Source: a virus
Virus record (IMG/VR): IMGVR_UViG_3300042514_000542
Span: 60,370-124,369 of that record
DNA length: 64,000 nt
Direction: 5' to 3' (one strand)
How positions within the stretch are numbered: position 1 is the stretch's first letter; every line of letters starts with the position of its first letter. This document shows, in pieces, positions 7,188-60,381 of this stretch. The position numbers and the translations under genes were made by a program. A model generated the notes under the pieces. That model searched no databases. It was not told the origin of the DNA and saw nothing but the letters and a program-made list of their open reading frames with translations.

Positions 7188-7190
7188 ATA

Positions 7191-8199: not shown

Positions 8200-8205
8200 A
8201 GTTGA

Positions 8206-8227
8206 ATTATAGTTCGGTTTTAATTAA
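8206..8227 (-). promoter_or_regulatory. cassette motif copy
   Basis: +strand ATTATAGTTCGGTTTTAATTAA. Confidence 0.6.
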
Positions 8228-8229
8228 GC

Positions 8230-9600: not shown

Positions 9601-9638
9601 TATTTAAACATAGAGTAGAGGTTTGTCAACCACGACAA

Positions 9639-18252: not shown

Positions 18253-19173
18253 TCATAGCTCAATTTTCATGCACACAACTCTCTCATCATGTGGATAGAA
18301 GTATTTGGTAGTCCAATTTTGTTTGGAATTTGTGGTATAAACCTTATCAAAATGCTCAGATACGTTTTTGATGCCATCATAGCAATCAGAGTGTGTGGTG
18401 AATAACATAAGCTTGCCACAATTCTTTTCACGAAGTTTCTTACCAAGGCCAATGAATGTTCCACCCATCGAATTAATATCATCGCAGATAAGTGTAGGAT
18501 GACCACCTAGATCATCAGCACCTACGAAGAACTCCTTAATAGAACCATCCTTGACATCACGAACTTTCTCACAACGAATTAGGTTGAATGTCTTAGCGTG
18601 ATACATGCAAGCAAGGTATTGTGTAATCTTACCTACGCGCTTTCCAGCACCAGCATCAGGACATACGATATTCCATTCCTTTTGGTTGACATCGCTTTGA
18701 ATGATTTGATCAATATATTTCAATTCATCAAGAACAATAACATTGTTAAGCAATGCTGGAGTCACTTCACTATGAGGACAAAGGATAGTAACACTGTTGA
18801 ATCCACAACCATTAATCATATCAGTAAAGACCTTAATGGTTAATGGTTCACCTTCATTACATACGCGGTCTTGACGAGCGGCGGGAAAGTATGGAAGAAT
18901 AAGTCTAATGTCATTAAAACCCATACGACGAGCAGCATCATTTGCCAGAATAATATCAAACAAATCGCCAATCTTATTATATCGTTGAGTGATTACCAGA
19001 GTAGATGCTTCTGGACATGCACATTTGTTAGTAATCTGAAAGTGCGGCTCCCCGCCTTTGAAGTCAAATTTCTTATAGAATACCTCAACACCCTCGAAAG
19101 GTGCGAAGGTTTCATCTAGGTTTAAAACGTATGGTCGTTCTGCTTTCATGTTCCAATGTATATGCTGCTTCAT
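18253..19173 (-). CDS. ribose-phosphate pyrophosphokinase (PRPP synthetase)-like protein; candidate ADPR-pyrophosphate synthetase (Adps) of an NARP1-type pathway
   Basis: 306 aa; LPYFPAARQDR, PDAGAGKR and DDI..MGGT resemble Prs motifs. Confidence 0.55.
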   Translation of the reverse strand: MKQHIHWNMKAERPYVLNLDETFAPFEGVEVFYKKFDFKGGEPHFQITNKCACPEASTLVITQRYNKIGDLFDIILANDAARRMGFNDIRLILPYFPAARQDRVCNEGEPLTIKVFTDMINGCGFNSVTILCPHSEVTPALLNNVIVLDELKYIDQIIQSDVNQKEWNIVCPDAGAGKRVGKITQYLACMYHAKTFNLIRCEKVRDVKDGSIKEFFVGADDLGGHPTLICDDINSMGGTFIGLGKKLREKNCGKLMLFTTHSDCYDGIKNVSEHFDKVYTTNSKQNWTTKYFYPHDERVVCMKIEL

Positions 19174-19259: not shown

Positions 19260-20273
19260 TTAAGCAGGATCAAGAGTTACAACAGTAACACCATCCACTT
19301 CATCCCATTCATACCACAAGTCTTGTAGAATGTTTAGAACGGTTTCCTTGGTGATCCAAGCAGGAGAGAAACTATTCTGAATTTGGCGAATAGTAACTTG
19401 ATCATATCCAGCCTCTTCCTTTCTTTGAAGGTAGGTTTGAACCTTTCCGACTTTAGCTAGATACTCTTCATTAACCTCTTCGGTATCATCTTCAATGGTA
19501 TCGAAAACATCTTGACCTTTGCTATCCACAACAGAAGTGAAGATTTCCTCCACGAAGTCAGCAACAACTTCATACTTGGAGACACGGCACTTTTGGAATG
19601 AATAGTCTTTTGGAACAGATACTACATCCTTTGGATTAACCTTAACAAGAATAAGTCTTTGAGAGAATCCACGGGCATAGTCCAATGATCCACAGTGAAG
19701 TCCAAAGCTACATTCATTGGCTCGATTATCATCGACACAGTTACGTGCAACTTCGATCACTTCACCAACACCATTATAGATATGTCCATATTCATCGACA
19801 GTTCCTTGAAGGACTCTTGTTTCGGTATTTCCAGTGGCAGAATAGTAGTCATTTCTAACACCCTTATAGGCAATTAGATCACCATCTTCGGTGATAGGAA
19901 GTTCCTTATAAGAAAGGAAGTCCGTAAGTTCTGCAACAGATTGTGCAGAAGGATTCTCACGAAGCTTTTCCCAAAACTTCTCAAAGTGTTCGATGGGAAG
20001 ACCATCACGAACAATCGAAATAACCTTGGTCTTCAAGGCTTTAGGTAGTGATTCTCCTTGATAGGTAACATCATCACCATTGATAATAAATCCAGCAGAT
20101 GTGATCTTGCTAATTGGATTGATGATTTCCTTCACAGCAGACTCTTGTTCATCCTTCGGTAGTTCAAAGGTCTTAAGAATTCTTGCGTAGTTTTTGTCGG
20201 TTTTCTCGACACGAACCTTCTCACCAGTTGATAGGAGAAGGATGATTGCGTTTGCGTTAGTTATGTAGTTCAT
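19260..20273 (-). CDS. hypothetical protein
   Basis: 337 aa; contains CSFGLHCGSLDYARGF; no family assignable by eye. Confidence 0.5.
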   Translation of the reverse strand: MNYITNANAIILLLSTGEKVRVEKTDKNYARILKTFELPKDEQESAVKEIINPISKITSAGFIINGDDVTYQGESLPKALKTKVISIVRDGLPIEHFEKFWEKLRENPSAQSVAELTDFLSYKELPITEDGDLIAYKGVRNDYYSATGNTETRVLQGTVDEYGHIYNGVGEVIEVARNCVDDNRANECSFGLHCGSLDYARGFSQRLILVKVNPKDVVSVPKDYSFQKCRVSKYEVVADFVEEIFTSVVDSKGQDVFDTIEDDTEEVNEEYLAKVGKVQTYLQRKEEAGYDQVTIRQIQNSFSPAWITKETVLNILQDLWYEWDEVDGVTVVTLDPA

Positions 20274-21047: not shown

Positions 21048-22976
21048 TCAATCTTTCATCAACAAAATCTTACGAAGATCCTGTCTAGTAATAGTTGCGT
21101 TGTAGTTGCCAAGAGATTTAAGGATACGTCCACGGGTAGAATTCTCCTTCATAATCTGTACCTTTACATCTTCAAGTTTTCCAAACTTAGAAGGATTTTT
21201 AGCAATATACTTTACAAGCCTATCCTTTGGTTTGGATGCATAGAAAAAGCCTTGAATGGAATATGTAGCATTATTAATGGCTCTTTGACGTTTATCCGCT
21301 TCATCAAATCTAGCCTTAGCGTCAGTATATTCTTGACTACTTGGAAGAATCCAACCAAGTTCCAAAAGGTTCTCAATCATCTTCTTACTATTAGCAGTCC
21401 AAAAATTATAGCGTGTTCCATAATCCTTGGTGGGTGCGATAGTTCTAGCATTGAGTTGATAAATGTTTTCCGTTTCAAGATGCCAATCATCTTCCAAATC
21501 AGCACCCTTGAAAGAATCCTTACGAACTTTTTCATCAAGTTCTTGAGCGGTGTAGTAATCCCTATTTCCATAGGAATTATACACAAGATATTGACCATTA
21601 TCTAGATTGGTATTAACAAGCTTTGGAAGTTTAAGGCTCTTAATATCTACAAAAGCACAATCGGAAATATCAATACTGTCGTCCAAGTTCTTCAACAACT
21701 CAGCATGATCCTTATTAGAAATATATACATATCCATCATAATCATCACCCTTAATAGATTTAAGGGCATTGATGAGACGTTTGTGCCAATTAGTGGTACT
21801 TTGAATGTCTGGAAAGATATAGATTATCTCCTTCGTGGCGGTAGAGTTAGCATAAACTTGTATAACGTGATCCCCAGCATTATCTCTACTACGTCCAACT
21901 TTATAATAATATTTATGAGTTGATGCGAAACAATCCTTGTATGAATAAGAGAACCAATCACCATCATAATTACTACCATGCTGCTCGTTACCAGTTACCA
22001 CAGCACCAAACTTTGGAGTAGTTAGGGCTGATACTTCTTCTTGTGTAATTTTATCTAATGCATCTTCAATCTCCTTAAAGACTTTTTCATTAAGGGGCGT
22101 GTTCTCAATACTCTCACGGGAGATTGGTAGTGATAATTTACCAATAGGAACATCTACCACGACATACTTAAAGAATGAACGGTTGACTCTAGTGGATGTA
22201 TTATATGGATAAATCACACCACCCATTCTCACATAATATTTATTACTATAATAGTCTGGTTCATACTCATATTGATGGAAAGTATATTCACCTACCGTCT
22301 TTGATCGAATTGGACTATATGGCTCGGCTTGGGTTTTATTGTACTGATTATCGAATTTAATATTAGAATTCGGTAGAAAGAATGATACGAATTTGTTGGT
22401 TTTTTGGCTAAAGTCATATACATCTAAAGACTTAACTTCAAGACTGATTTCAATACCTTGTTCCGTAGTAGGTTCTTGGGAGATTTCATAAATCTCACCA
22501 ACAGGGATACCACCATTACCAGCACCTAGAGTGCAGATGTAACTAGTCTTGATACCATTATGATAAGAGGTGATGTAGAAAGTATCACTATAGGCATGTC
22601 CAGCTTTTGAACCCACACCGAATCCACCAATGGAATCATTCTCATTGGTCTTAGTGGATTCGAAATACATACCGAAGACATTACGAACATCGTGATCATT
22701 AAGACCCTTTGCATAATCCCTTACAGCCCAAACCCATTGATTATTCACAGACTTAAGAGAAACATTTACAGCTTCTTTAATCTTATGTTTAACGTGTTCG
22801 TCTTGAGCATTGCAGATGTATTCTCGAATAACTGCAAGGGTTTTATCGGTATAGATACGATCCCGAAGGAAGTAGCTTGCCATTTCCATGCCCTTATTGG
22901 ACATACCCATGATACTCTTGTTATCTTTGATATCGTCAGAGGCGATAGTCTTTGTTGTTAGTATTCCCGTTTTCAT
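21048..22976 (-). CDS. rIIA: rIIA-like protein (GHKL/HATPase_c ATPase domain)
   Basis: 642 aa; N-terminal GHKL ATPase signatures (IREYICNAQDE...GGFGVGSKA); size and context fit T4-like rIIA. Confidence 0.45.
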   Translation of the reverse strand: MKTGILTTKTIASDDIKDNKSIMGMSNKGMEMASYFLRDRIYTDKTLAVIREYICNAQDEHVKHKIKEAVNVSLKSVNNQWVWAVRDYAKGLNDHDVRNVFGMYFESTKTNENDSIGGFGVGSKAGHAYSDTFYITSYHNGIKTSYICTLGAGNGGIPVGEIYEISQEPTTEQGIEISLEVKSLDVYDFSQKTNKFVSFFLPNSNIKFDNQYNKTQAEPYSPIRSKTVGEYTFHQYEYEPDYYSNKYYVRMGGVIYPYNTSTRVNRSFFKYVVVDVPIGKLSLPISRESIENTPLNEKVFKEIEDALDKITQEEVSALTTPKFGAVVTGNEQHGSNYDGDWFSYSYKDCFASTHKYYYKVGRSRDNAGDHVIQVYANSTATKEIIYIFPDIQSTTNWHKRLINALKSIKGDDYDGYVYISNKDHAELLKNLDDSIDISDCAFVDIKSLKLPKLVNTNLDNGQYLVYNSYGNRDYYTAQELDEKVRKDSFKGADLEDDWHLETENIYQLNARTIAPTKDYGTRYNFWTANSKKMIENLLELGWILPSSQEYTDAKARFDEADKRQRAINNATYSIQGFFYASKPKDRLVKYIAKNPSKFGKLEDVKVQIMKENSTRGRILKSLGNYNATITRQDLRKILLMKD

Positions 22977-24008: not shown

Positions 24009-24030
24009 ATTATAGTTCGGTTTTAATTAG
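24009..24030 (-). promoter_or_regulatory. cassette motif copy (read through as C-terminal ..LIKTEL of the upstream gene)
   Basis: +strand ATTATAGTTCGGTTTTAATTAG. Confidence 0.6.
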
Positions 24031-24666
24031 CTTGTTTGGAATTACTTCCGAATGCATCCAGTGTGTATCAGTCGTAACATGATTTGGTCTTACCCATTTC
24101 GCCACATTACTTCCAAAGTTTTCATATGCAAATCCATCGGCATTGCGAACTACGTATCCTTCATGCACCTTACGATCCCTATTCATAAAGTCTTCAATAT
24201 ATACTGAAACATTACCGGGACTTCTTTCATCCCATAGAAAAGGCTTGGCTATAATAGGAACATGTTCAATACCCAACAACTGACAGAACTCTACAGTATC
24301 TTTCCAAGACAAGCAATAGTTAGTTTCATCCCAAATGGAGAAACAGTAGAAGTATGATTTAAGATCATCATAACCAATGGAATGTTTAGCGTAAAGATTC
24401 TCACCACACACTCTCCATCCTTCTGGAATGTCATTCTTAATAGATGCATGAAATTGTTTGATCCATGAACGTGATGGATGATCTTTACTATCCAATGAAC
24501 GAGCATGATAATGATCATTATATAGAGTGGAATTTTCACCATCCATCTTTTCGGTGATAATCATTGACTTACCATTGAAGCATGAAGTATCCTTAAGAAT
24601 TTTATCATCAGAAGTCGCTCCCGGCGACCAGTTAAGGTGCTTTGTTCGTGGATACTTAATTTTCAT
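24010..24666 (-). CDS. RNA ligase family protein (nucleotidyltransferase motif I KxDG)
   Basis: 218 aa; N-terminal KYPRTKHL and MIITEKMDGEN match the RNA_ligase (Rnl2/PF09414-like) family. Confidence 0.5.
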   Translation of the reverse strand: MKIKYPRTKHLNWSPGATSDDKILKDTSCFNGKSMIITEKMDGENSTLYNDHYHARSLDSKDHPSRSWIKQFHASIKNDIPEGWRVCGENLYAKHSIGYDDLKSYFYCFSIWDETNYCLSWKDTVEFCQLLGIEHVPIIAKPFLWDERSPGNVSVYIEDFMNRDRKVHEGYVVRNADGFAYENFGSNVAKWVRPNHVTTDTHWMHSEVIPNKLIKTEL

Positions 24667-25000: not shown

Positions 25001-25029
25001 ATTGTTATTTCGGTTCCGATCCTATTAAA
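25001..25029 (-). promoter_or_regulatory. degenerate cassette motif copy
   Basis: +strand ATTGTTATTTCGGTTCCGATCCTATTAAA; an insertion disrupts the TTAATTAA box. Confidence 0.4.
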
Positions 25030-25834
25030 TTTTACACCATTTCCTGTCCATTTTAGGAACATCAATAGACAACAGTTTATTTCTCAAATAGATATACTTT
25101 CCAGTCTTTAAATTACCACCAAAAGATAGCTTATATACCATATTTGTATTTTTGATTTTTTTAATCGTGGTATCTATATTACAATAACTAGAAAACACGT
25201 TCTTTATAAATTGTAAAATATCACATGTCCCAATAATGGTAATAATTTGATTTCCATGGCTAGAAGCGATACAACCATCTCCATCTATATACCCTATTAT
25301 ATAGGCCAAAGCATGATTAACTGTTGGTATGTTTTCTGGCGGTTTAATCGTCGCCGTCTTATTCTGAGTAATGTTAAATCTATTAACTAATGTATTAACA
25401 ATATCTGGAACCCCGGTGAATTCACATCCGACATATTTTCCACCACCTCTAAAATAAAGTGGGCCATCATATTTAAAGTGTTCTTTTAACAGATTAACTG
25501 TCTTTAAATCTCTAGAGTGTAGCGTTAAACGAACCCTATTATTGGCTTCATCAATACATCCATCTGCTGCTAACAACCCAACCAAATACCAAGTCGTCAG
25601 ATCATCATTATCGAAAGCCTTCTGATCTATATTATATCTTGAGCCTTTACGTTTACCATTTCTTTTACTTTTACGCACACCAATATCTAAAATAGATCTA
25701 CAAGATTTACATTGGGAAGTGTAAAGGTTTTTACTTTTTGATCTTTTATAAAAAGATTCTAATGGTTTAGTTTCTTTACAGGTTGTGCAGGTTTTGTTGT
25801 TAGTCATACTATTATTTAGTGTGATCAACAACAA
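25025..25834 (-). CDS. LAGLIDADG homing endonuclease with N-terminal zinc finger
   Basis: LVGLLAADGCI and IIGYIDGDGCI motifs; N-terminal CTTCK...CKSC. Confidence 0.6.
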   Translation of the reverse strand: MLLITLNNSMTNNKTCTTCKETKPLESFYKRSKSKNLYTSQCKSCRSILDIGVRKSKRNGKRKGSRYNIDQKAFDNDDLTTWYLVGLLAADGCIDEANNRVRLTLHSRDLKTVNLLKEHFKYDGPLYFRGGGKYVGCEFTGVPDIVNTLVNRFNITQNKTATIKPPENIPTVNHALAYIIGYIDGDGCIASSHGNQIITIIGTCDILQFIKNVFSSYCNIDTTIKKIKNTNMVYKLSFGGNLKTGKYIYLRNKLLSIDVPKMDRKWCKI

Positions 25835-27253: not shown

Positions 27254-27425
27254 CCTGATCTTCTAATTCCTCTTCTGTTATATCAGATAAATCAATACAT
27301 TTTCTATACATATCTATCAACCTTTGTGTTACCTCAAAGTATTCTTCAAAATATTTATTGTTAATATATAGAGACTTCATTTTAGTAAGCTCTCCAAATC
27401 TAGGTATAAGTTCATCCTTTTTCAT
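27240..27425 (-). CDS. hypothetical protein
   Basis: 61-aa ORF. Confidence 0.4.
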   Translation of the reverse strand: MKKDELIPRFGELTKMKSLYINNKYFEEYFEVTQRLIDMYRKCIDLSDITEEELEDQDGYQ

Positions 27426-27871
27426 AGCAGTTGTCCAATACGTTGTGAAATGATCTTGTTATCAATACTACCATTAGATAGCTCCAATGCCCTCTTAATG
27501 GCTTTACCCATGTCTTTCTTAGATGTAGCACCAACATCAGCGATAGCTGTTACAATGATATTCTCAACCTCTGCTTCGGTCAATGGTGCTGGTAGGTATT
27601 CATTAAGAATCTCAATCTCATCTTTTTCAATTTTGATAAGATCATCTCTCATAGAGCTTACATAAAGCTTCATTGCATCTTCTCTTGTAGAGACAGCTTT
27701 ACGAACAATACCAAGAATCTCCAATTCACTAACTGGTTCATCAATATTACCCTTAGCCAACGAAGCATTGGTTATAGAATTTTTCAATGCACGAAGAACA
27801 TTCAACCTAGTTGTGTCCTTATCACGCATTGCCTGTTTTAGATCTGTATTTATTTTATCAATCATACTCAA
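27422..27871 (-). CDS. GatB/YqeY-domain protein
   Basis: 149 aa matching the YqeY-like family. Confidence 0.55.
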   Translation of the reverse strand: MSMIDKINTDLKQAMRDKDTTRLNVLRALKNSITNASLAKGNIDEPVSELEILGIVRKAVSTREDAMKLYVSSMRDDLIKIEKDEIEILNEYLPAPLTEAEVENIIVTAIADVGATSKKDMGKAIKRALELSNGSIDNKIISQRIGQLL

Positions 27872-27893: not shown

Positions 27894-28114
27894 CGCTTTG
27901 GTGTGTATTGTTTTACACACTTATCACAAAGTTCTTCTTCCACTAGGGATACGAACAATGACGTATCATATCCCCTTGAATACATAAGATTAAATGCTGC
28001 CTGAATCCATTGTTGACGACTCTTAGCAAAGTCATTACGTTCTTGTTTAAGAACTCTGATGATTTCCGTCTTACTTAAGTCGGAAAGATCAGTCGGATGT
28101 TGTTCACATTTCAT
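27890..28114 (-). CDS. hypothetical protein
   Basis: 74-aa ORF. Confidence 0.45.
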   Translation of the reverse strand: MKCEQHPTDLSDLSKTEIIRVLKQERNDFAKSRQQWIQAAFNLMYSRGYDTSLFVSLVEEELCDKCVKQYTPKR

Positions 28115-28650
28115 TAGATCGCTACAGTGAACTTCTGACTATCAGAATAATTCTTTGAGTTAGGATCAATAAGATTAATCTTATCAAGAAACTCATAGAT
28201 ATCCTTACATGTATAAGGATATCCCTTAAGTCTCGATTGAATCATCTTAGTGGTCACAGCACCATTATTCTTAAGGTAAGAATAGATTTTCTTTTGAACA
28301 TCGACAGGAATGTTAGTAGACGCCATAGCGGTTTGAACCACAGCAGTAGGTGTAGATTGCGCTGGTGTAATTGTAGTAGGTGATGCTACACCAAATTGAT
28401 ATTCACGATACCCATTAGGATTGTGGGTTTCATTAACACCCTCTAAAATACCATTTTCTAGAAGTTCGAGGAATAGTTCCTTCACATCATCGTGATATAC
28501 ATAATTTTCCTGATATGATGTATCGAGTAAATATACAATATCATTAAGATTTTTTCTAATCACCTTAGTAATATCCCAGATCGAAAACTTAGTAGTTCCG
28601 AATGATTTGATTGCTATAAGGATGGCCGTTGTTGTTTGTATTGTCTTCAT
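28114..28650 (-). CDS. hypothetical protein
   Basis: 178-aa ORF. Confidence 0.5.
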   Translation of the reverse strand: MKTIQTTTAILIAIKSFGTTKFSIWDITKVIRKNLNDIVYLLDTSYQENYVYHDDVKELFLELLENGILEGVNETHNPNGYREYQFGVASPTTITPAQSTPTAVVQTAMASTNIPVDVQKKIYSYLKNNGAVTTKMIQSRLKGYPYTCKDIYEFLDKINLIDPNSKNYSDSQKFTVAI

Positions 28651-28654
28651 AATT

Positions 28655-29890
28655 TTATTTTACTTCTAATAGATATTTGATTCTGATTTGATTTCCATTA
28701 TAGACAATCAATTCGTCATTTAGGAAAGATGTGTTTTGTGGCAATGCCCAGCAGGAATCATATCCAGATGGTAATTGACTGAAAGTATGTTTTGTATAGT
28801 AAGGATTACCCATCACGAAGTCACAGATAAATAACCACCCACTATCACCCTTACCTTGACCCCATCTACCTAGAGTATACCCTAAACTTTTTGATGCTGT
28901 TTCAGATCCGTAAGTCCCGTTTCCAAAGGCTTTTCCGGCTATAGCGACAGTAGATGGTGGACTAGGTTGTAGACCACTTTTTAAAATACTGAGAATATTT
29001 GCGGAAGAACTTCCATGCCACACTTCCTTAACATTCACCGGATTCTTCACAAAGTTAGCATTGTAATCCACAATGTCAACCTCATAAATGTTGATAATTT
29101 TAACATGTTGATAATGATGCATTGGTTTATTCGTGCTATTATACCAATCTTGAATTTTCTTAATAACCTTGGGATCAGTCACCAGAGACATATTGAGATT
29201 GAATACCTTTTCAGTAGAAGGTTTAGTGGCATCAACAGGTGCTTTAAGTGCCATTTCAACACTGTTATCAAGAGCGTCCAATACATCAGATTCCTTCTTA
29301 ACTACATCAACATTTGGAAAGATATTCTCATATAATAATCCACCACCCTTTGGTCTTGGGATGATCTTAAGATAATCATCAATTTTTTGATTGAAATCAT
29401 CCTGACCATTCTTCTTAATGTTTTTGAAGAAGTAATCGAGTAGAATACGTGCCTCTGAGATACCCTCTTTGGTTACGATACCCAAGGGGGTTTGGAATAC
29501 ACCGTTATTGAAACTAATACTAGTTGAGTTGGTGATCTTATGGACATTGCTATCTGCAAGTCTCTTAACAAGAGTCTTAAGACTACTATCCGATAACTTA
29601 ATTTGTGATAAGGCGATATCCGCCAATGACGTATTAGCAATAACCTTATTGGTTACAGCACCTTCCATTAGGACTTTAGCATGAGTATAACCCTTACGTT
29701 CCTTCTCACGGATTTTCTTATCAAAAAATGACTTACCAACACATCCGAAATCCTTTGATTGTGGGTTCTTTGCCCCAACTACACCAAATTCCGCCATAAC
29801 TCTTCCGTCGTCATGTAATTCGGCTTGCCAAAACTTATATGAGTTAGCTTTTAAGTCTGAGAAAACGAGCTTTACTTTTTCTTTTATCAT
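28655..29890 (-). CDS. poly(ADP-ribose) polymerase-like protein (WGR domain + PARP catalytic domain)
   Basis: N-terminal WGR-like YKFWQAEL...FGVVG. C-terminal VWHGSSSANILSILKSGL...TYGSE...IVYNGNQIRIKYLLEVK aligns with the eukaryotic PARP1 catalytic core (LWHGS...IVYDIAQVNLKYLLKLKF) recalled from memory. Confidence 0.65.
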   Translation of the reverse strand: MIKEKVKLVFSDLKANSYKFWQAELHDDGRVMAEFGVVGAKNPQSKDFGCVGKSFFDKKIREKERKGYTHAKVLMEGAVTNKVIANTSLADIALSQIKLSDSSLKTLVKRLADSNVHKITNSTSISFNNGVFQTPLGIVTKEGISEARILLDYFFKNIKKNGQDDFNQKIDDYLKIIPRPKGGGLLYENIFPNVDVVKKESDVLDALDNSVEMALKAPVDATKPSTEKVFNLNMSLVTDPKVIKKIQDWYNSTNKPMHHYQHVKIINIYEVDIVDYNANFVKNPVNVKEVWHGSSSANILSILKSGLQPSPPSTVAIAGKAFGNGTYGSETASKSLGYTLGRWGQGKGDSGWLFICDFVMGNPYYTKHTFSQLPSGYDSCWALPQNTSFLNDELIVYNGNQIRIKYLLEVK

Positions 29891-30171
29891 TAGTATGATT
29901 GTATTTCGGTTTTAATTATTCTTTCTATAACCCACTGTTGATATTGATATCCATCTTTTTGCGGATCATACAAATCATCATTATCAATACAATTCCATGT
30001 GTCTCCGACACGAATAGGAGTAAAACTTAAAAGATCGTTATATGTGTAAGTTAGACCATCACATAAGTTATTTGCGCATGAATACCTATCGGAAGATTCA
30101 TATATACGAATATTCTTTGGAATGTCCGATAACACTATACCGTATACCTTTTCGTGTTCATCCCATGTCAT
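29890..30171 (-). CDS. hypothetical protein
   Basis: 93-aa ORF. Confidence 0.45.
   Translation of the reverse strand: MTWDEHEKVYGIVLSDIPKNIRIYESSDRYSCANNLCDGLTYTYNDLLSFTPIRVGDTWNCIDNDDLYDPQKDGYQYQQWVIERIIKTEIQSY
29898..29919 (-). promoter_or_regulatory. cassette motif copy
   Basis: +strand ATTGTATTTCGGTTTTAATTAT. Confidence 0.6.
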
Positions 30172-31250
30172 AAGTCTAATAGTTGTTCCATTGCCACTTT
30201 CACAAGTTTATCTTCAACCACTCTATCATCAAGTAGACAGAATGCCAATGATGTTTGCCAAGCCTTGAATCTACCAGTGATATATAGTGCCTGTTCCTTA
30301 CGGGTTTCCAAAAGCTTAATATGATTCTTAAGTTCGTATTCTATAATATTGAGAGTATGAACATACTTACCATAAGATTCTGTGACCTTACCGATAAAGT
30401 CCTTACACTTCTCCGCAATTTCGAAATCAAGTGTCGTTTCGATGTAATTATAGAATTCCTTCTCTTCTACAAACTTAGGTGAAGCCAAGAACACATCAAG
30501 AACTTGCTTGATGCCTTTGATACCAGTAGCAAGCTTGTGGAGTTCACAGTATTCATCTGCCTTGATCTTCTTTAATGTTTGACCATCAGGTGAATATAAC
30601 ACTACGCCTTCTTTACCAGTCCATGCTGCAACATCAAGGATACATTCTTCGACAGAATTATATTCATACTTTTCAGGACGATTAACTCCAAACATTTTAG
30701 ATGAACCATCCAATGCGGCTTGATTTGCATATCTCATTGTGCGGTGTCCCACAATACCAACCAAAGTTAAAGTAGGTTCATCATGTTCACGAAGAACAAT
30801 AATGTTTGAAGGAGTGGTCCATTCAAATAACAATGATGATATCCCAGCATCCAACCAATTATTATCAAATGCCTTTGGATACTTCTTTATAAGAAGATCA
30901 ATCTCATGACCATTAGCCATTTGACGAGCATCAACAGTTCCACGGGTTCTTATGATAAGTTCCCCTTTATACTTTGAAACGATTAATAAACTTCCGTCTA
31001 ATTTATGTCGCGCTTCGATCTTCCATGAGTTGTCCCAAGGTTGAAAATCAGGACGCTCACCAAAGTTAGTGAACTTGGCAAAACCTTGTGATACTACAAA
31101 GTTATCAGACTTACGAACAATACAAGAACGGAATCGTGCATTGTCATCAAACCACTTCGTAGCCATATCGACAGGGTTGATCAACCAACATTCATCTCCT
31201 GCTATGGTGCAGTCTTTGAATTTGAATTGTTCTGGATCGGGTAACTTCAT
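30168..31250 (-). CDS. rnlA: RNA ligase 1 (T4 RnlA-like)
   Basis: 360 aa; motif I HKLDGSL (T4 Rnl1 KEDGSL); size matches Rnl1. Confidence 0.55.
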   Translation of the reverse strand: MKLPDPEQFKFKDCTIAGDECWLINPVDMATKWFDDNARFRSCIVRKSDNFVVSQGFAKFTNFGERPDFQPWDNSWKIEARHKLDGSLLIVSKYKGELIIRTRGTVDARQMANGHEIDLLIKKYPKAFDNNWLDAGISSLLFEWTTPSNIIVLREHDEPTLTLVGIVGHRTMRYANQAALDGSSKMFGVNRPEKYEYNSVEECILDVAAWTGKEGVVLYSPDGQTLKKIKADEYCELHKLATGIKGIKQVLDVFLASPKFVEEKEFYNYIETTLDFEIAEKCKDFIGKVTESYGKYVHTLNIIEYELKNHIKLLETRKEQALYITGRFKAWQTSLAFCLLDDRVVEDKLVKVAMEQLLDL

Positions 31251-31495: not shown

Positions 31496-32467
31496 TTATT
31501 TCAATTGCATTAGCATATTGGTAGCGTCACCTGTAATCATAGTAGGTGTCTTACCATCCCACTTCTTAACAGCATCAGCCAGAGCATTAGCCTTAATCAT
31601 TTCAATTTCAATATCAACAAGTTTCTTACGTTCTTCGGCAGCAGCAGAGAACTCAATAGCTTGTGCTTTCTGACCTTCGGCTTCTGACAATAGGCGTTTA
31701 TTGATTTCAAGTTGTTGTGCAGTTCTTTGTTTCTCACGCTCAACTTCCATTTCTGCAACATAAGCATCATTAATAGCCTTTTGAATTTCTGGTTGTTCAA
31801 AGAACAGACCTTCAGCAAGACCAATGGATGTAATGGTAATACCATACTTCTTGAAATGTTCAGTGACTTGAGTTTTCAAGGCTTCTGTAATTTCATTTTT
31901 CTCAGATTTACTTTCTTGTAGGGATCTTGATGCAAATTCTTGTGATAGAACTGTGTGAACTCGCTCACGGACATTTTGATCCATAATAGTTGTTAGATCA
32001 CCACCACGATAGTAGTATAGATAAGTCGCTGTATCAGCTTCTTCTACGTGTGCTGATGCGTTAATACCAACACTGAATCCAATAGAATCCCTAGATTCAA
32101 CACCGAAAGTTTTTTCGGATAGATTTATCCTATTACCAGTAGGTTCGGTAATCCAATTTCGAGTAACAGGACTTCTATTAACGGTAATAACCCTAACGGT
32201 TGGAATCCATTCAATACTATGTCCCCATCTACCTACTTGTCTTTCCCTTTGAGGAATTACAATTCGTTTTGCGGCTACCTGATTTTCTTGTAGAAATTCA
32301 ATACTTTCCAATTTCTCCTGATTCTCTGTTCCCATTTCAAGGGGGATTACAAATGCAGTTTCATTGGGTTCAATTTCTACGATTGGGTCAACTCGAACTG
32401 GTTTCATACAAGATGATTGCATAATTACCAGTGCGGCTAGTGTCATTGTTATTAGTGTTTTCTTCAT
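31496..32467 (-). CDS. SPFH/band-7 (stomatin/HflK-like) lipoprotein
   Basis: Signal peptide with lipobox ...IMQSSC; band-7-like coiled region. Confidence 0.5.
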   Translation of the reverse strand: MKKTLITMTLAALVIMQSSCMKPVRVDPIVEIEPNETAFVIPLEMGTENQEKLESIEFLQENQVAAKRIVIPQRERQVGRWGHSIEWIPTVRVITVNRSPVTRNWITEPTGNRINLSEKTFGVESRDSIGFSVGINASAHVEEADTATYLYYYRGGDLTTIMDQNVRERVHTVLSQEFASRSLQESKSEKNEITEALKTQVTEHFKKYGITITSIGLAEGLFFEQPEIQKAINDAYVAEMEVEREKQRTAQQLEINKRLLSEAEGQKAQAIEFSAAAEERKKLVDIEIEMIKANALADAVKKWDGKTPTMITGDATNMLMQLK

Positions 32468-32892: not shown

Positions 32893-33306
32893 TTATCTTA
32901 GCTTAAGAGACTGTTTAATATTATTCTCATGTCTTTCAAGAATTTCTTCTCCCACACCATGAACGTTCTTACCACCATGACGATTTTCAACCACTAGGAA
33001 TATAACATCCGCATCAAAGTTTTTAGCCTCTTTTTCATAATAGGTAAAATCATTAACTTTGGTATTAGTATTATTCACGATGATATCAGTTACAGTGGAT
33101 TCCTTAAGAGCTTCTTTGAAATTATACATACAAACACTATGGGCATGTGCAAGTTTATTAACATCCCAATTATAATTTCCATCCTTATCAGTAAAGAAAT
33201 CATCAGCACTAACAGAAACCCATCCAATATTTCGAGTAAGTTTTGTGGTTACAAAATCCTTACCAGCACCGGAACATCCTCTCAAAATCCATACAGTTTT
33301 TTTCAT
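32893..33306 (-). CDS. pnk: polynucleotide kinase-like P-loop kinase (T4 Pnk kinase-domain-like)
   Basis: MKKTVWILRGCSGAGKD resembles the T4 Pnk N-terminus MKKIILTIGCPGSGKS; 137 aa, no phosphatase domain. Confidence 0.5.
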   Translation of the reverse strand: MKKTVWILRGCSGAGKDFVTTKLTRNIGWVSVSADDFFTDKDGNYNWDVNKLAHAHSVCMYNFKEALKESTVTDIIVNNTNTKVNDFTYYEKEAKNFDADVIFLVVENRHGGKNVHGVGEEILERHENNIKQSLKLR

Positions 33307-34491: not shown

Positions 34492-34513
34492 ATTATATTT
34501 CGGTTTTAATTAA
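34492..34513 (-). promoter_or_regulatory. cassette motif copy
   Basis: +strand ATTATATTTCGGTTTTAATTAA. Confidence 0.6.
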
Positions 34514-35157
34514 TTCTTTGTTGTTAAAGGTGTCAGTCCACTCAATCCTGTTACAGTGTCTATTAAAAACACTTCACCATTTCTGGGATTTTTATATCTC
34601 TCGAAATCCTTTACAGACCATCCCAAGAGATACATTAAATAAAGCTTGTTAAACTCTCCGTGAGCTACCACAATATTGTGTTCATACTTACTAGTAGCTA
34701 GAATATGTTGATGGAACAATACTGCGCGTTGGTAACAGTCGGCAAACGACTCACCACCAGAAGGACGGTAATAGAAATTGAAATGTGATTCTGTTTTATT
34801 TCCCATTTCAACAATATCCCTAAGATTACCCCATTCTCTTTCACGTATCAGGGGCAATTCTTCAAATTTATTAATTTGATAGTTTTGATAACCCGTGATC
34901 CTACCATGTAGGATATTTGCTGTTTGGTATGCCCTCTTATAAGAACTATGATATAAATTAAAATTACATCTGGGTTCTCTAGGTGGATTGTCTGATTTAG
35001 CGTCATGTTCAACCAAACTCATAATATCATCAGCCGCATTAATAGCATCATCCTTTCCTCGTTCAGCCAATTCAATATCACAATCTAGATTTCTAAAATA
35101 TTCAGATTTATCGATATTCCCCTTCGACAATCCGTGTCTAACTAAGTAAATTTTCAT
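34510..35157 (-). CDS. histidine phosphatase superfamily protein (phosphoglycerate-mutase-like)
   Basis: N-terminal LVRHGLSKGN (RHG catalytic motif); 215 aa. Confidence 0.55.
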   Translation of the reverse strand: MKIYLVRHGLSKGNIDKSEYFRNLDCDIELAERGKDDAINAADDIMSLVEHDAKSDNPPREPRCNFNLYHSSYKRAYQTANILHGRITGYQNYQINKFEELPLIREREWGNLRDIVEMGNKTESHFNFYYRPSGGESFADCYQRAVLFHQHILATSKYEHNIVVAHGEFNKLYLMYLLGWSVKDFERYKNPRNGEVFLIDTVTGLSGLTPLTTKN

Positions 35158-35160
35158 ATT

Positions 35161-35616
35161 CTATTCCTTAAAGTATGCATCAGTGATCACTTCATTTTTA
35201 TCATAATCAATCACTAACATAGGTGATCCATCGTATCTCACATCATCCCTCAATTGAAGACCCCACTTATAAGTCATACAAAGTGTCATGATATCTATTG
35301 CAAAGAACTTACCAATCAAATCTTTTAGATCAACTTCAGGAAGATCCCACTCGAAACTATGCATGTTGAAGAATGGTTGATCCCTACCATCGAGAGGATC
35401 GTTATCATCAAATATATTAGGATATTCCTCTAACCACACATATGTAGAGGAAGAATTTAATTCCGTTTTTCTAACAGTATATTGTTGACCCGGAACTAGT
35501 TTCTTAGCATCTTCGTTAACGTTAATAAACCAACTTCTAGTAGGCTCTATAAATGTTATCTTCTGCCCTACTTTTGGTAGACCATGTAATATTTTTCTGT
35601 CATTAAACATGCTCAT
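35161..35616 (-). CDS. hypothetical protein
   Basis: 151-aa ORF. Confidence 0.5.
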   Translation of the reverse strand: MSMFNDRKILHGLPKVGQKITFIEPTRSWFINVNEDAKKLVPGQQYTVRKTELNSSSTYVWLEEYPNIFDDNDPLDGRDQPFFNMHSFEWDLPEVDLKDLIGKFFAIDIMTLCMTYKWGLQLRDDVRYDGSPMLVIDYDKNEVITDAYFKE

Positions 35617-36029
35617 AATAGTGGTAGATGGTCTGTTAGACCATCGAATTTGCTCGATTCATGTGGCCCGATTGCAATTGCCGTCTTAGTCTTAACTCCA
35701 TTAAATTCAGTCGCACCGTTGTCGATAATCATATGGGATATTAACCCATTGTCAAGAGCCTTTTGGTGAAGTTCGTCAAGTTCTTGTTCACTGTTGACAT
35801 AGACACAGATTTTACGAAATGAGTTTTTCAACCAATGGTCTATTTCATCGACATGTTTAGATTCTAAGTCTTGATAAAAGTAGTCATCCCTATACACATG
35901 TTGATAATCGTAGTCAACCCGACCACCTTTTGTTAAGAATGACATTGATGCATGACTCGATTGGGCGCACATCTTCCCCTTCCTCATGTTGAGGTCTTTT
36001 CGGATTACTATAACCTGTTTAGTATTCAT
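35613..36029 (-). CDS. peptidyl-tRNA hydrolase PTH2-like
   Basis: RKGKMCAQSSHAS and AIAIGPHE match PTH2 motifs (GKGKIAAQCSHA, AIGPGP). Confidence 0.6.
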   Translation of the reverse strand: MNTKQVIVIRKDLNMRKGKMCAQSSHASMSFLTKGGRVDYDYQHVYRDDYFYQDLESKHVDEIDHWLKNSFRKICVYVNSEQELDELHQKALDNGLISHMIIDNGATEFNGVKTKTAIAIGPHESSKFDGLTDHLPLL

Positions 36030-37056: not shown

Positions 37057-37078
37057 ATTATACTTCGGTTTTAATTAA
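37057..37078 (-). promoter_or_regulatory. cassette motif copy
   Basis: +strand ATTATACTTCGGTTTTAATTAA. Confidence 0.6.
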
Positions 37079-38490
37079 CTCTCTTCCTCCATATCGGCTT
37101 CGTTATTATCCCTCGCAGCGGATTCCTTAATAACAAATTTAGGTGATTTGAATTTTAATGCGGTTCTCTTGGGATTGTTTTCAATTCTAAGAACAATACC
37201 CTCATTAACAACACCAGTGGTGCAAAGTTCACAATCCTTATCAAGATGAGCCTCCTTAAGTTTTGCCAAGAAATTATCATTCCAATCTTTATCCATAGGG
37301 ATATCATCAGCAAACATATCTCTAGCCAATCCAGTATAATATACTGGAACTGTTTTCAATCCAAGATCATGACAAAATTCCTCAATCTCATACCATTCCA
37401 ATTCGTAGATTTTACCTTCAGGTAGGTTACAAGTAATTCTATATACTCGGAATTCGCATTCACCTTTAGCTACACCGTAATCATAACCCTTTTGGATGGT
37501 CGCACCACCGGAGGTATATCCCACAATTTCACCATACACAGTATAACGTTCTGGAATTTCACCCTCAAGTTCTGCTGCAATAACACCCCATACATCATCA
37601 GTATAGTTCCCATCGCGTCTATTCTTAAGAACACTACGACTAGAGTATACGAACTTATATTCCGTGTCTGGAATATTAAGTCCAAGATTGGGTACATAAT
37701 ATCCGATCTTATTAAGAATAGGTCTAGTGATGCTGAATGGTTTCTTACAAAGAATGTTCGCAAAGATCGCAGACGTTCCATGCATCTTAGAAGATACCGT
37801 AATAAAATCATCAGGATTAACTAAGAAGATATTCCTACCAAGATGTTCAGTCTTATAATGAAATGCGAATTGACCATCAACAAGTTGAGATTTGATACCT
37901 TCGGCCTTTCTATTGAACCATGCATTAATAGGCTTATATAGTTTAACACGAATAGGTCTTGGCATGACACCAATGGTTTTCTCAACCCATTTTGGAACAC
38001 GGCTCTTTTTCTCATTAGCTTCACCGCTATTTCTAGCATCACCCTTAACGTATTTCTTGGCTAGAACATCTTCACCAACAGTATCAAAGATATCACCAAG
38101 TTTAAAGGTGTCTTCATCTACTTCATAATATTTTGCTAGTTCGGATACTTTGAATAGGAATCCTTGGGATGGAATGGATCTTAGGCCAATAGCCTTAACA
38201 CGACCATGCTTACCGAAAAATCCCTTGGTTTTTCCATCAGCATTAAGTTCGGCGTTATCTCTAAGATTTGCCCAAGATAGGAACTTAAGAGAAATGGCAC
38301 ATTCTACTGGAAAGTAGACCACAAGATCACCTTCGTTATAAGAACCTTTTCCAATGATAATAGTATTACCAAAGACTTCCACCAAAGAAAGTCTATCTGC
38401 GTTGGGGTGATCCTTAATAACAGGAACCTTTACGACAGTTGGTAGGTAGTTGGGATCTGCACCCTCGCTAATAGTTAATTTTGCTTTCAT
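37075..38490 (-). CDS. rnlB: RNA ligase 2-like enzyme fused to an N-terminal tRNA-binding (Myf/EMAP-II/Trbp111-type) OB domain
   Basis: N-terminus HPNADRLSLVEVFGNTIIIG resembles tRNA-binding domains; KMHGTSAIF matches T4 Rnl2 motif I KIHGTN; 471 aa. Confidence 0.55.
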   Translation of the reverse strand: MKAKLTISEGADPNYLPTVVKVPVIKDHPNADRLSLVEVFGNTIIIGKGSYNEGDLVVYFPVECAISLKFLSWANLRDNAELNADGKTKGFFGKHGRVKAIGLRSIPSQGFLFKVSELAKYYEVDEDTFKLGDIFDTVGEDVLAKKYVKGDARNSGEANEKKSRVPKWVEKTIGVMPRPIRVKLYKPINAWFNRKAEGIKSQLVDGQFAFHYKTEHLGRNIFLVNPDDFITVSSKMHGTSAIFANILCKKPFSITRPILNKIGYYVPNLGLNIPDTEYKFVYSSRSVLKNRRDGNYTDDVWGVIAAELEGEIPERYTVYGEIVGYTSGGATIQKGYDYGVAKGECEFRVYRITCNLPEGKIYELEWYEIEEFCHDLGLKTVPVYYTGLARDMFADDIPMDKDWNDNFLAKLKEAHLDKDCELCTTGVVNEGIVLRIENNPKRTALKFKSPKFVIKESAARDNNEADMEEES

Positions 38491-39045: not shown

Positions 39046-39897
39046 TTATTCAAAATCGCGGATACTATGGATAAAGGGAAATCTGGGAATTTGCTTATCA
39101 GGTGTCTTATTAAAGAAAACCACAGTAGCCAATTTACCAATGTAGTTATCCTTGTTATCTAACAGTTCTTTAAGGTATGCTCTATCACCTTTAATATTGG
39201 AATTGAAACTATGTCCAAGTTCGTTTTCAAAAACCATAGCACCTGCAAGCCCCGCACGATTTCCAACACCTTCCACAATATCAAGAATCTTATACTCTTC
39301 ATCTTGGAATTCTTTCCTCTTAAGAAGATTAGCAGAACGCTTGAATTCATACGGTGTATCGAGTCGAACCATTTGACCCTCATAACCTCTATCAAGATAT
39401 GCACCATAAACTTTATCTAAGGTTTCAAGATCATCAATTCTTTGTGTAGTTACTCTAACAATACAATCGGGAAGATTAAAATTTTCTTTGATTGTTTTGA
39501 TCCAATTTTTACGTTGTCTAAAAGTGTGTTTATCACTGGCAGTATCATACCACCAGAATTGAACCATTTCGGCACTTTCCACCAAATCATCTTTGGTCGG
39601 TTTTTGCTTCTTAATCAAAGATGACATTTTGTTGAAGTCATGCTTCAAATCGTGGTTGTATAATTCACCATCAAGGATCAAATCTGGATACTTTTCAAAT
39701 ACGGGTTCCAGTGCTTCAAGAATATGTGGAATAGTTGCCCAAGGTTTACCATTACGAGACTTTGCCCCATTACGAGTAATCACCGCTCGACAATTATGAA
39801 CTAATATATCATTAGCGTAGAAGTTATGATTATCTTCTACTTCTATATCATATCGATCATAAAAATCTTCTAATTTTTCTATCTTAACAATTTTCAT
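39046..39897 (-). CDS. ATP-dependent DNA ligase C-terminal fragment, preceded by a split-intein C-half (IntC, ~35 aa)
   Basis: Starts MKIVKIEKLEDFYDRYDIEVEDNHNFYANDILVHN|C, closely resembling Npu DnaE IntC (MIKIATRKYLGKQNVYDIGVERDHNFALKNGFIASN|C). Ligase motifs follow: ILDGELY, GYEGQMVR, LLKRK. Confidence 0.7.
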   Translation of the reverse strand: MKIVKIEKLEDFYDRYDIEVEDNHNFYANDILVHNCRAVITRNGAKSRNGKPWATIPHILEALEPVFEKYPDLILDGELYNHDLKHDFNKMSSLIKKQKPTKDDLVESAEMVQFWWYDTASDKHTFRQRKNWIKTIKENFNLPDCIVRVTTQRIDDLETLDKVYGAYLDRGYEGQMVRLDTPYEFKRSANLLKRKEFQDEEYKILDIVEGVGNRAGLAGAMVFENELGHSFNSNIKGDRAYLKELLDNKDNYIGKLATVVFFNKTPDKQIPRFPFIHSIRDFE

Positions 39898-40777
39898 ATT
39901 TATTTAAAATCTCCTCAACTCGTTCTTTATTAATCTCATCATCCCAAATAGTCTCAAAGTTATAATTTAAATTGATTATGTGGTCTTCTTTTATTTTATC
40001 TCTTTGCCATATTTGTTCCGCTGTTAACTTTCCATGGATTGTATTGAACATATCATGTGGTTTATAATATTTTGGATTTGCGTGCCAAAAGCACCCGTTA
40101 ACCTCAATCACCAATTTTTTATTAGGTATGTATATATCAACAATTGGGCAAAACCTTCTCTCCATAATTGGATTGTAAGATTTAAAGTATTCATTTGTTT
40201 CGGTTTCATATTCTACTCCCAAATCGTCTAAAATCTGCAATGTATCTCTATGCGGTTTAGATAATCTAAATGTCTTTCGAAAAAATCCCGGAATCTCCGA
40301 TGGATGCTCGACACCATGATTAGTTATCCAGTAATCTTTAATTTTTTGTTTAATTACAGGAGATTTAAAATTATTATCTACTCCATATGTGTCTAAACAT
40401 TTTAATCTCTTTTGTTCCTTTACTATATTTGACTGGGATATATTTGTTATATTCTCACCATATTTCTCTCTTATAGTTTTAATTTTACTGGCACTAACAC
40501 TTGGAAGGAAACATGTATCGGAAATGTTTCTAGTTTCAACTCCTGTTTCATTTCGTAATCTATCTATAATAACACCAGCACCACCTATAGATATTCCAAT
40601 TTCTTGGAAATACTTGACTATAGAGTTTGCACTCATATGTTCATTAAGATATAAATCAATTAATAAATCATTTGTTATTATTTCTCTAATATATTTTCTT
40701 CTATCGTGATTATTTGGGTGTTTCGACAATACATCTCTATCCAATATCAAGCTTTCAAATTTTTCCTTTTCAGTCAT
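39884..40777 (-). CDS. free-standing Vsr-like (PD-(D/E)XK) homing endonuclease between the intein halves
   Basis: 297 aa; LVIEVNGCFWHANP matches the Vsr signature FxDGCFWHxH; separated by stop codons from the IntN ORF and overlaps the IntC ORF by 14 nt. Confidence 0.6.
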   Translation of the reverse strand: MTEKEKFESLILDRDVLSKHPNNHDRRKYIREIITNDLLIDLYLNEHMSANSIVKYFQEIGISIGGAGVIIDRLRNETGVETRNISDTCFLPSVSASKIKTIREKYGENITNISQSNIVKEQKRLKCLDTYGVDNNFKSPVIKQKIKDYWITNHGVEHPSEIPGFFRKTFRLSKPHRDTLQILDDLGVEYETETNEYFKSYNPIMERRFCPIVDIYIPNKKLVIEVNGCFWHANPKYYKPHDMFNTIHGKLTAEQIWQRDKIKEDHIINLNYNFETIWDDEINKERVEEILNKYENC

Positions 40778-40816
40778 CTATATTATTTAGTCAAAACTGG
40801 ATGGTTTCAACCAAAA

Positions 40817-60358: not shown

Positions 60359-60381
60359 ATTATTATTTAGTTATAAAGTTA

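Follow-up and report, generated by a model that had tools for sequence, protein, structure and literature searches.

A WGR-containing PARP-family gene and its conserved partner gene in an uncultured T4-like phage

The 64,000-nucleotide stretch analyzed here (the window) covers positions 60,370 to 124,369 of the IMG/VR record IMGVR_UViG_3300042514_000542 and belongs to an uncultured T4-like myovirus with a genome of approximately 207 kb. One open reading frame (ORF) in the window, at 28655-29890 on the minus strand, encodes a true PARP catalytic-family protein of minimal three-domain architecture, formed by a WGR domain, a helical regulatory domain (HD), and an ADP-ribosyltransferase (ART) catalytic domain. 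Together with the gene directly downstream, which we call X, it constitutes a conserved two-gene module. The explanation that best accounts for the observations as a whole, to which we assign a probability of roughly 0.55, is that the phage encodes a catalytically competent PARP with the architecture of the break-sensor type that acts possibly with the help of X, with a macrodomain protein that erases the mark, and with a NARP1-like gene pair that recycles NAD+.

The ORF is open throughout, begins with ATG at exactly the coordinates at which it was first read, and is predicted to encode a protein 411 aa long. A Pfam scan matched residues 244-384 to the PARP catalytic domain (PF00644) with an E-value of 7.2e-25 and 88.1 bits (gathering cut-off 26.7). 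Residues 6-71 matched the WGR model with 21.5 bits, just under the cut-off of 22, and residues 103-214 gave a sub-threshold match to PARP_reg (18.8 bits, cut-off 26.8). PHROG 23333, annotated 'polymerase', spans the whole protein, aligning residues 3-411 with positions 3-383 of a 383-position profile (E 2.7e-46); NCBIfam contained no match. A sequence search of solved structures with the ORF returned PARPs exclusively, with human PARP1 the best (E 6.5e-17) followed by PARP4, PARP2, and PARP3. A profile built from 38 family members matched WGR-CAT chains of PARP1 and PARP2 with an E-value of 1e-36, in an alignment running from the WGR domain to the C-terminus. The alignment-based AF2 model (pLDDT 84, pTM 0.72) is made up of an N-terminal domain rich in beta structure, followed by helical and ART domains. 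When this model was used as the query in Foldseek, the top match was chain 4dqy_C, the WGR-CAT portion of PARP1 on a DNA break (E 2.6e-22, TM 0.65), and DNA-break-bound PARP2 chains were also among the best matches, with full-length coverage.

The WGR-fold domain occupies residues 1-75 (29666-29890, on the minus strand as are the other two domains). Many homologues pass the WGR model and the family profile aligns on the WGR domains of PARP1 and PARP2. An earlier note on this DNA, made by a model from the letters alone, had described a WGR-like motif at the N-terminus; the profile and Foldseek support the fold, but the motif itself reads FGV rather than W-G-R. The HD spans residues 89-215 (29246-29626). 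Despite the sub-threshold score for PARP_reg, phmmer placed residues 124-215 on the HD of PARP1, and both the helices of the AF2 model and the Foldseek matches cover this region. In bacterial PARPs, Pfam often misses PARP_reg though the helical domain is present, and Tyr or Phe often stands in place of the Trp (PMC5966428). The ART domain follows at residues 230-411 (28658-29203).

Alignment of the ART domain with PARP1 placed WHGS on H862-G863-S864, GTYGSE on GIYFAD (Y896), SKSLGY on SKSANY (K903, S904, and Y907), and NDELIVY...IKYLLEVK on YNEYIVY...LKYLLKLK (E988). The catalytic triad H862, Y896, and E988 of PARP1 corresponds to H292, Y327, and E393 of the phage protein, and residues G293, K334, S335, and Y338 align with G863, K903, S904, and Y907 of the nicotinamide pocket. 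The earlier note had recognized a PARP catalytic core by HGS, the Y region, and the terminal IVY..KYLL block; the Pfam match and the PARP1 alignment confirm this and, judged from them, the motifs are real and lie far beyond chance. The check it proposed of the H-Y-E triad by HMM search and structure prediction gave an intact triad in a protein whose best Foldseek matches are PARP1 and PARP2.

In a 38-sequence alignment, H292, Y327, E393, G293, K334, Y338, and the HD motif P135-L136-G137 are invariant. We then considered 120 homologues with identities reaching down to 42% with the window PARP, and all 120 retain the equivalents of H862, G863, Y896, K903, Y907, and E988 as well as those of the HD leucines L713 and L768. 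Residues L151, L204, and L207 of the HD core, which correspond to L713, L765, and L768 of PARP1, are conserved. H-Y-E is retained at all 44 loci fetched for comparison (given L numbers below), including distant ones. The invariance of these catalytic and nicotinamide-pocket residues indicates purifying selection on the active site, and we consider it very probable that the ORF encodes an active PARP-type transferase. The equivalent of PARP1 Y986 is Asn in 107 of the 120 homologues, and approximately 25 residues of PARP1 directly ahead of the catalytic Glu have no counterpart in the phage PARP.

A protein search returned 474 homologous clusters at E ≤1e-5, nearly all of them approximately 405-425 aa long and many on contigs of 197-214 kb; several homologues are named 'poly [ADP-ribose] polymerase' by JGI. 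Among records of cultured phages, a PARP was found in 16 of 50,697, always with 33% identity or less, in agreement with the earlier note that such genes are rare in phages. Its label 'eukaryote-like' was not borne out: the closest relatives are viral or bacterial and have 27-91% identity, versus 19-24% for human PARP1 and PARP2 (Foldseek). PARP homologues were listed in 2014 for Aeromonas phage Aeh1 and Cellulophaga phage phi4:1 (PMC4245714), and in 2022 Iyer et al. counted PART/PARP as one of the H-Y-[EDQ] ART families met most often in viruses (PMC9503650). The gene belongs to this known but uncharacterized group of phage PARPs. What seems to be undescribed is the concerted loss of relay residues, the obligatory partner X, and the repeated linkage with macrodomain and NARP1 genes.

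The relay residues in question lie in the WGR domain. In the profile alignment, the family motif y-G-r-V-G falls on W589-G590-R591-V-G of PARP1 and the second Asn of the family falls on N567; at these positions the window PARP has F35-G36-V37 and Y18. It belongs to a subclade of approximately 65 of the 120 proteins, with 57-100% identity to it, that reads [N/R/H]-Y ... [F/Y]-G-[V/A]. A sister subclade with 42-55% identity reads N-N ... W-G-R. All other fetched lineages retain the Arg, including Klebsiella phage FBKp34, Xanthomonas phage XacN1, distant viral contigs, and bacterial metagenome-assembled genomes (MAGs), and nearly all of them retain the Asn, with Tyr in two viral contigs. DNA-dependent activity is abolished by W589A in PARP1, W138A in PARP2, and W101A in PARP3, and is eliminated by R591A in PARP1 (PMC4081085). 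PARP2 N129A is inactive, and R153 and N127 connect DNA with the regulatory domain (PMC8190142). The alignments thus indicate that the relay residues were swapped in concert in the window's lineage, within a WGR fold. Because they are replaced while the catalytic site and the HD core are strictly conserved, this pattern suggests a re-wired trigger or coupling rather than decay, and the trigger or coupling in the window's subclade probably differs from that of canonical PARPs.

Gene X (28114-28650, minus strand) starts 4 nt beyond the stop codon of the PARP gene and the two are translationally coupled. It is predicted to encode a protein 178 aa long. When we traced X with iterated profiles over 33 fetched PARP loci, it was 0-3 kb downstream of PARP on the same strand in 25 of them. 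This includes every locus with a PARP identity of at least 39% except the L013/L014 phage, where X is 9 kb upstream. At a locus where PARP identity is as low as 45%, the gene after PARP still encodes a protein 33% identical to X (E 9e-21). Profile searches of the fetched loci did not find X beside bacterial-genome PARPs, nor beside the PARPs of FBKp34 and XacN1; FBKp34 gp112 and the vWA neighbor in XacN1 were considered as candidates and have no detectable relation to it. The AF2 model of X (pLDDT 78) contained two winged-helix-like domains and a disordered linker rich in Pro, Thr, and Ser, and the C-terminal domain carries an invariant IQSRLKG..YTC motif. X gave only noise against Pfam and has no family in Pfam, PHROG, NCBIfam, or PADLOC, and Foldseek against PDB and BFVD returned generic tandem winged-helix/HTH matches alone, with E-values of at least 1e-3. 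An exhaustive profile search yielded 398 representatives of the X family, mostly stand-alone proteins, some having an N-terminal extension that is either DUF7695 or unassigned. From the predicted fold, X may serve in nucleic-acid binding, in recruitment, or as an acceptor.

Two of the comparison loci deserve mention here. L035 (JAYOZP010000018.1, labeled 'Nitrospinales MAG'; 49.9 kb) carries X together with a DNA ligase gene and a PARP that has 45% identity to that of the window, and looks like a phage contig mis-binned into a bacterial MAG. At L038 on the Abditibacterium chromosome OZ251992.1, a 1,277-aa ORF without a Pfam match (7297-11127) directly follows a PARP with 34% identity and may be a different PARP partner.

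The candidate eraser is encoded at 42172-42717 on the minus strand. The earlier note had called this ORF a macro domain that could recycle ADP-ribose. A direct Pfam scan gave no match and single-sequence matches in PDB were weak. Its homologues carry PF01661, however, and the family profile matched BT1257 (6e-24), SCO6735 (3e-21), TARG1 (4.5e-18), and DarG (1.3e-16) in PDB, along with an Appr1p phosphatase; the ORF also matches DarG models. By these profile matches the ORF encodes a genuine macrodomain of a TARG1-like class, although Pfam misses it. The macro family has no invariant Lys or Asp; in TARG1, Lys and Asp (K84 and D125) form the catalytic dyad. Its NLYGQ and RAGG segments align with NMIGQ and LAGG of BT1257, which suggests that it resembles the SCO6735 and BT1257 type.

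Macrodomain genes recur upstream of PARP in other lineages. The distance is approximately 50 nt in L030 and L031, where Pfam Macro is above threshold, 1 kb in L027, and 2.4-2.5 kb in FBKp34, L013/L014, and L024, and the genes between the two vary among these loci. In the viral contigs L030 (215 kb) and L031 (165 kb), the Macro ORFs (9070-9891 and 9113-9874) precede PARPs 27-28% identical to the window's, the tightest writer-eraser pair observed. In FBKp34 (L003, MW394390.1), gp105 (4064-4579), annotated as a 'putative phosphatase', is a homologue of the window's macrodomain; 2.4 kb downstream, the stretch 7001-9192 holds the PARP gp111 and, two genes after it, the YqeY-like gp113, a layout that echoes that of PARP and YqeY in the window. 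Repeated closeness of PARP and macro in genomes of approximately 150-215 kb is unlikely to be accidental, with the lineages only partly independent.

The window also contains a Prs-like gene at 18253-19173 and a NAMPT-like gene at 15425-16924, both on the minus strand. The earlier note took these for a NAMPT/Prs pair that rebuilds NAD+. The NAD+-rebuilding genes are there, but the comparisons suggest that they are probably NARP1 (Adps and Namat) rather than classical Prs and NAMPT. Osterman et al. showed that in such phage operons ADP-ribose is pyrophosphorylated by Adps, after which Namat combines the resulting ADPR-PP with nicotinamide to form NAD+ (10.1101/2024.02.11.579819). The Prs-like protein, which has the Pfam domains Pribosyltran_N and Pribosyltran, reached 97 bits with TIGR01251, whose cut-off is 113. 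It is 32% identical to bas61_0254 of BASEL phage Bas61 (144 bits, E 1.6e-45), with indels in common, versus 24% identical to E. coli Prs (63 bits, E 1e-15). The NAMPT-like protein matched Pfam NAPRTase (E 2e-35) and is 34% identical to the Namat-type bas61_0255 (E 2e-100). A Namat homologue lies within ten genes for 97% of Adps-clade genes (10.1101/2024.02.11.579819). The two window genes lie within this distance, in the order of the NARP1 operon with Namat downstream, and are separated by a 146-aa ORF and, on the plus strand, by a gene for a LAGLIDADG endonuclease. NMNAT, the partner in NARP2, was not detected among the ORFs scanned in the window, and neither were PARG, ARH, NADAR, or NUDIX proteins. 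In other lineages, a Prs-like gene is 1.2 kb upstream of PARP (L015-L017, L025, and L029) and a NAMPT-like gene is within 7 kb of it (L002 and L020); L002 also has NUDIX and NADAR genes near PARP.

Based on these results, we propose that the HD would keep the PARP off until the WGR domain, possibly aided by X, binds an end or a nick in a nucleic acid. With NAD+ as the donor, the PARP would then attach ADP-ribose to itself, to X, to other proteins, or to the termini of nucleic acids. The macrodomain would strip the mark and free ADP-ribose, and NARP1 would rebuild NAD+ from this ADP-ribose and the nicotinamide released by the PARP so that NAD+ is not drained. Such a loop is chemically exact, since PARP yields nicotinamide, a macrodomain yields ADP-ribose, and NARP1 needs both together with ATP. 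That the trigger is a nucleic-acid end is at best an even proposition, and functional coupling of macro and NARP1 to the PARP is more tentative. The self-contained circuit proposed in the earlier note draws its support from the recurrent linkage of PARP with macro and Adps genes in relatives.

Several observations weigh against this proposal. W589, R591, and N567 are each needed for DNA-dependent activation in PARP1 or PARP2 and are Phe, Val, and Tyr here, so activation by breaks may not hold. An intact H-Y-E triad does not distinguish mono- from poly-ADP-ribosylation, and PARP4, named a mono-ADP-ribosyltransferase, is also among the matches of the phage PARP. No fusion of X to a PARP or a macrodomain occurs among the representatives of the X family. 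Macro and NARP1 have established independent roles in counter-defense or RNA repair (10.1101/2024.02.11.579819; PMC9503650) and are much more widespread among phages than PARP: a Prs-like gene is present in 1,557 phage records and PARP in 16. Within the window, the macrodomain gene is 12 kb from the PARP gene and the NARP1 pair is 9-13 kb away. The neighborhood counts were taken over 10 kb on each side of PARP in lineages that are only partly independent. Finally, our literature searches found no functional or biochemical study of any phage PARP.

The gene string around PARP bears on how its role is read. The window has an even base composition of approximately 35% G+C and almost all of its genes are on the minus strand. 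T4-type genes include rIIA-like (21048-22976) and rIIB-like (19260-20273) genes, an Rnl1-type RNA ligase, ThyX, and a tail sheath that is approximately 41% identical, in its C-terminal third only, to sheaths of T4-like phages of Pseudomonas, Synechococcus, and Pelagibacter. The order in the string is Rnl1, a 93-aa ORF, PARP, X, a 74-aa ORF, and a YqeY-like gene. From Rnl1 to the 74-aa ORF, neighbors overlap by 1-4 nt or sit 4 nt apart; YqeY follows after an 18-nt gap. Eukaryotic contamination is ruled out by these overlaps of the PARP gene with its neighbors within a string of T4-type genes (Rnl1, rIIA/rIIB, and tail sheath). The T4 Rnl1-type ligase (30168-31250, minus strand) matched Pfam RNA_lig_T4_1 (E 5e-12) and PHROG 562 (E 6.5e-34). 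The stop codon of the 93-aa ORF (29890-30171, minus strand) overlaps the PARP start (TAATG), and this ORF has no family match in Pfam, PHROG, NCBIfam, or PADLOC. The YqeY-like gene (27422-27871, minus strand; Pfam YqeY E 2e-36) is in the same operon as PARP, and relatives of the close clade as well as Klebsiella phage FBKp34 likewise have it downstream of PARP; apart from the YqeY of FBKp34, synteny with Rnl1 and YqeY is limited to the close clade. None of PARP, X, YqeY, and the small adjacent ORFs matched a defense system in PADLOC. A gene neighboring PARP has an identical copy on a contig of 206,590 bp, and a megablast of the PARP gene and the surrounding 24 kb against 50,697 phage records gave no match, so this phage is not among the sequenced isolates.

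At the head of the gene string that contains Rnl1 and PARP is an SPFH/Band7 gene (31496-32467, minus strand) whose product has an N-terminal lipoprotein-like signal sequence. Upstream of it is the sole perfect TTGACA-N17-TATAAT in the window (32699-32671, minus strand). At least one perfect match to this sigma-70 consensus occurred in 16% of shuffles, so the match is not significant and was not used as evidence.

Approximately 35 kb around PARP is rich in genes for the repair of nucleic-acid ends: Rnl1, two further RNA ligases, a Thg1-like gene, PTH2, His_Phos_1, an AAA_33 kinase, metallophosphatases, cREC_REC, and a DNA ligase. Genes for RNA/tRNA repair or processing are unusually dense in the window (12262-13032, 24010-24666, 30168-31250, 32893-33306, 34510-35157, 35613-36029, 37075-38490, and 45105-46365) and include the Thg1-like 3'-5' polymerase, three RNA ligases, the AAA_33 kinase, the His_Phos_1 phosphatase, and PTH2. 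A metallophosphatase gene adjoins that of a protein with the cREC_REC 'cyclic-phosphate processing' domain. No tRNA genes were found in the window.

We weighed the proposal against other explanations. The macrodomain and the Adps/Namat pair could be independent tools of counter-defense or RNA repair, the first directed against DarT-type DNA ADP-ribosylation or soluble ADP-ribose derivatives and NARP1 against NAD+-depleting immunity, with the PARP acting alone or with X only. This is a serious contender that we hold tentatively. NARP1 experimentally counters NAD+-depleting defenses and, being present in 4.3% of phages (10.1101/2024.02.11.579819), is far commoner than PARP; phage macro domains mostly target soluble ADP-ribose derivatives according to Iyer et al. 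(PMC9503650); and the window's macrodomain matches both DarG models and Appr1p phosphatases and lies, like NARP1, 9-13 kb from PARP. Full independence is harder to reconcile with the nearness of macro genes to PARP (approximately 50 nt to 2.5 kb) across at least five lineages that have PARP identities of 27-50% to the window's and varying genes in between, with the Prs-like genes 1.2 kb upstream of PARP elsewhere, and with NARP1 substrates that are the exact products of PARP and macro. An unlikely explanation is that the PARP is a host-takeover effector that, like T4 Alt, ModA, and ModB, ADP-ribosylates proteins of the host at an early stage of infection, either constitutively or under the control of X and with no need for breaks. 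Phage ARTs of known function do modify host proteins, the Arg and Asn of the DNA-signal relay are lost in the window's subclade, and the genes strung together with PARP are non-structural and of early type, with the sole perfect sigma-70 consensus upstream of them. That promoter match is not significant, however, and the strictly conserved autoinhibitory HD core (equivalents of L713, L765, and L768) and WGR fold argue for a regulated rather than a constitutive enzyme; moreover, the sister subclade has the canonical W-G-R and Asn with the same partner X.

It is also conceivable, though quite unlikely in our estimation, that the enzyme modifies nucleic-acid ends. Its acceptors would be the terminal phosphates of DNA or RNA, in the manner of PARP1-3 at DNA breaks and of PARP10, PARP11, PARP15, and TRPT1 at RNA 5'-phosphates. 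Ends could thereby be protected, marked, or blocked while the phage replicates, while host DNA is degraded, or in conflicts involving tRNA nucleases, and the TARG1-class macrodomain would reverse the modification. The dense end-healing and end-sealing genes around PARP, with Rnl1 in the string upstream and YqeY counted among them, fit this idea, as do the predicted nucleic-acid binding of X and the DNA ligase genes near PARP in other loci (1.8 kb upstream with a GIY-YIG gene between in L002, and within 5-8 kb in L024, L027, and L035). Published work reports modification of DNA ends by PARP1-3 and PARP2. T4-like early regions mix unrelated genes, though, which makes guilt by association weak, the Rnl1 and YqeY synteny has the narrow distribution given above, and none of the sequence features tested separates a protein from a nucleic-acid acceptor. 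Very improbable is a degenerate pseudo-PARP or a plain NAD+ glycohydrolase. The loss of the WGR signature residues and the deletion of approximately 25 residues before the catalytic Glu would fit such a protein. The catalytic and pocket residues are invariant in 120 homologues down to 42% identity, however, with H-Y-E retained beyond this range, and an NAD+-wasting enzyme would oppose the phage's own genes for NAD+ reconstitution. A more specific version of our proposal is that PARP and X form a phage-specific two-component system in which X is the nucleic-acid recognition element or the acceptor. In the window's subclade the relay would be re-wired to another trigger, such as modified phage DNA or the ends of RNA or tRNA. 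The mark on nucleic-acid ends or nucleoid proteins would be erased by macro, with NARP1 rebuilding NAD+ from the freed ADP-ribose and nicotinamide in an NAD+-neutral loop. In this full form we regard it as improbable.

The phage PARP can be set beside several known enzymes. It shares with human PARP2, PARP3, and the WGR-CAT portion of PARP1 the WGR-HD-ART order and fold, H-Y-E, the equivalents of G863, K903, S904, and Y907, the HD core leucines, and the PLG motif. Unlike them, it has no disordered or zinc-finger N-terminal region, has Phe, Val, and Tyr in place of Trp, Arg, and Asn, is approximately 25 residues shorter before the catalytic Glu, has Asn at the Y986 position, and is followed by the gene of a tandem winged-helix partner. 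Bacterial PARPs, including HaPARP, CdPARP, and MAG homologues, have the same three domains in approximately 400-450 aa. HaPARP from Herpetosiphon aurantiacus and CdPARP from Clostridioides difficile both show activity in vitro, which in the case of HaPARP depends on activation by DNA (PMC8120803). The relatives in bacterial genomes (Abditibacterium, Chthonomonadales, Armatimonadales, and Treponema; 33-37% identity) retain the Arg and Asn and lack X, unlike the window. Annotated phage PARPs (gp111 of Klebsiella phage vB_KpM_FBKp34 and those of Xanthomonas phages XacN1 and Xoo-sp13 and Cellulophaga phages phi4:1 and phi17:2; PHROG 23333) have the same family and architecture but are at most 33% identical to the window's, retain F/Y-G-R and Asn, and have no detectable X after PARP. 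T4 Alt, ModA, and ModB are likewise phage NAD+-dependent ADP-ribosyltransferases used in infection, but they belong to the R-S-E clade of ARTs, have neither WGR nor HD, and are mono-ARTs with known host protein targets. The NARP1 genes of Bas63 and SpbetaL1 have the Prs-like then NAMPT-like order seen in the window; the window genes, probable counterparts by sequence, are separated by two genes, unlike the NARP1 operon.

Other features of the window were observed along the way. The DNA ligase gene (39046-41506, minus strand) is fractured into three ORFs. The N-terminal part (40817-41506) ends in motif I, KLDG, and continues at once into an N-intein (CLHGYS...); the middle ORF (39884-40777) is a separate endonuclease with DUF7487 and Vsr-like regions; and the third (39046-39897) begins with a 35-aa C-intein (...ILVHN|C) followed by the ligase adenylation and OB domains. 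From its sequence the locus looks like a split intein whose halves are separated by a free-standing gene for a homing endonuclease. Homing endonucleases of the LAGLIDADG type are encoded by four genes, at 13022-13972 (minus), 16978-17766 (plus), 25025-25834 (minus), and 44087-45100 (plus). Two of these are on the otherwise near-empty plus strand, one of them between the Adps-like and Namat-like genes. A 552-aa DUF7788 protein is encoded at 9639-11297 (minus).

PARPs are central to DNA-damage signaling in eukaryotes and are drug targets. The family described here is abundant in large environmental T4-like phages, with the 474 protein clusters noted above. Its two sister subclades, one with W-G-R and Asn and the other with F/Y-G-V and Tyr, amount to a natural mutagenesis of the relay that links break detection to catalysis in PARP1-3. 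A small PARP of 411 aa, one candidate partner, and repeated linkage to eraser and NAD+ genes make up a minimal system whose trigger, target, reversal, and use of NAD+ could all be reconstituted in vitro. If the link between PARP, macro, and NARP1 is true, NARP1 would have a housekeeping role in the phage's own ADP-ribosylation besides counter-defense. If PARP and X are indeed a two-component system of the kind outlined above, a virus would encode a closed, NAD+-neutral loop of writer, eraser, and recycler.

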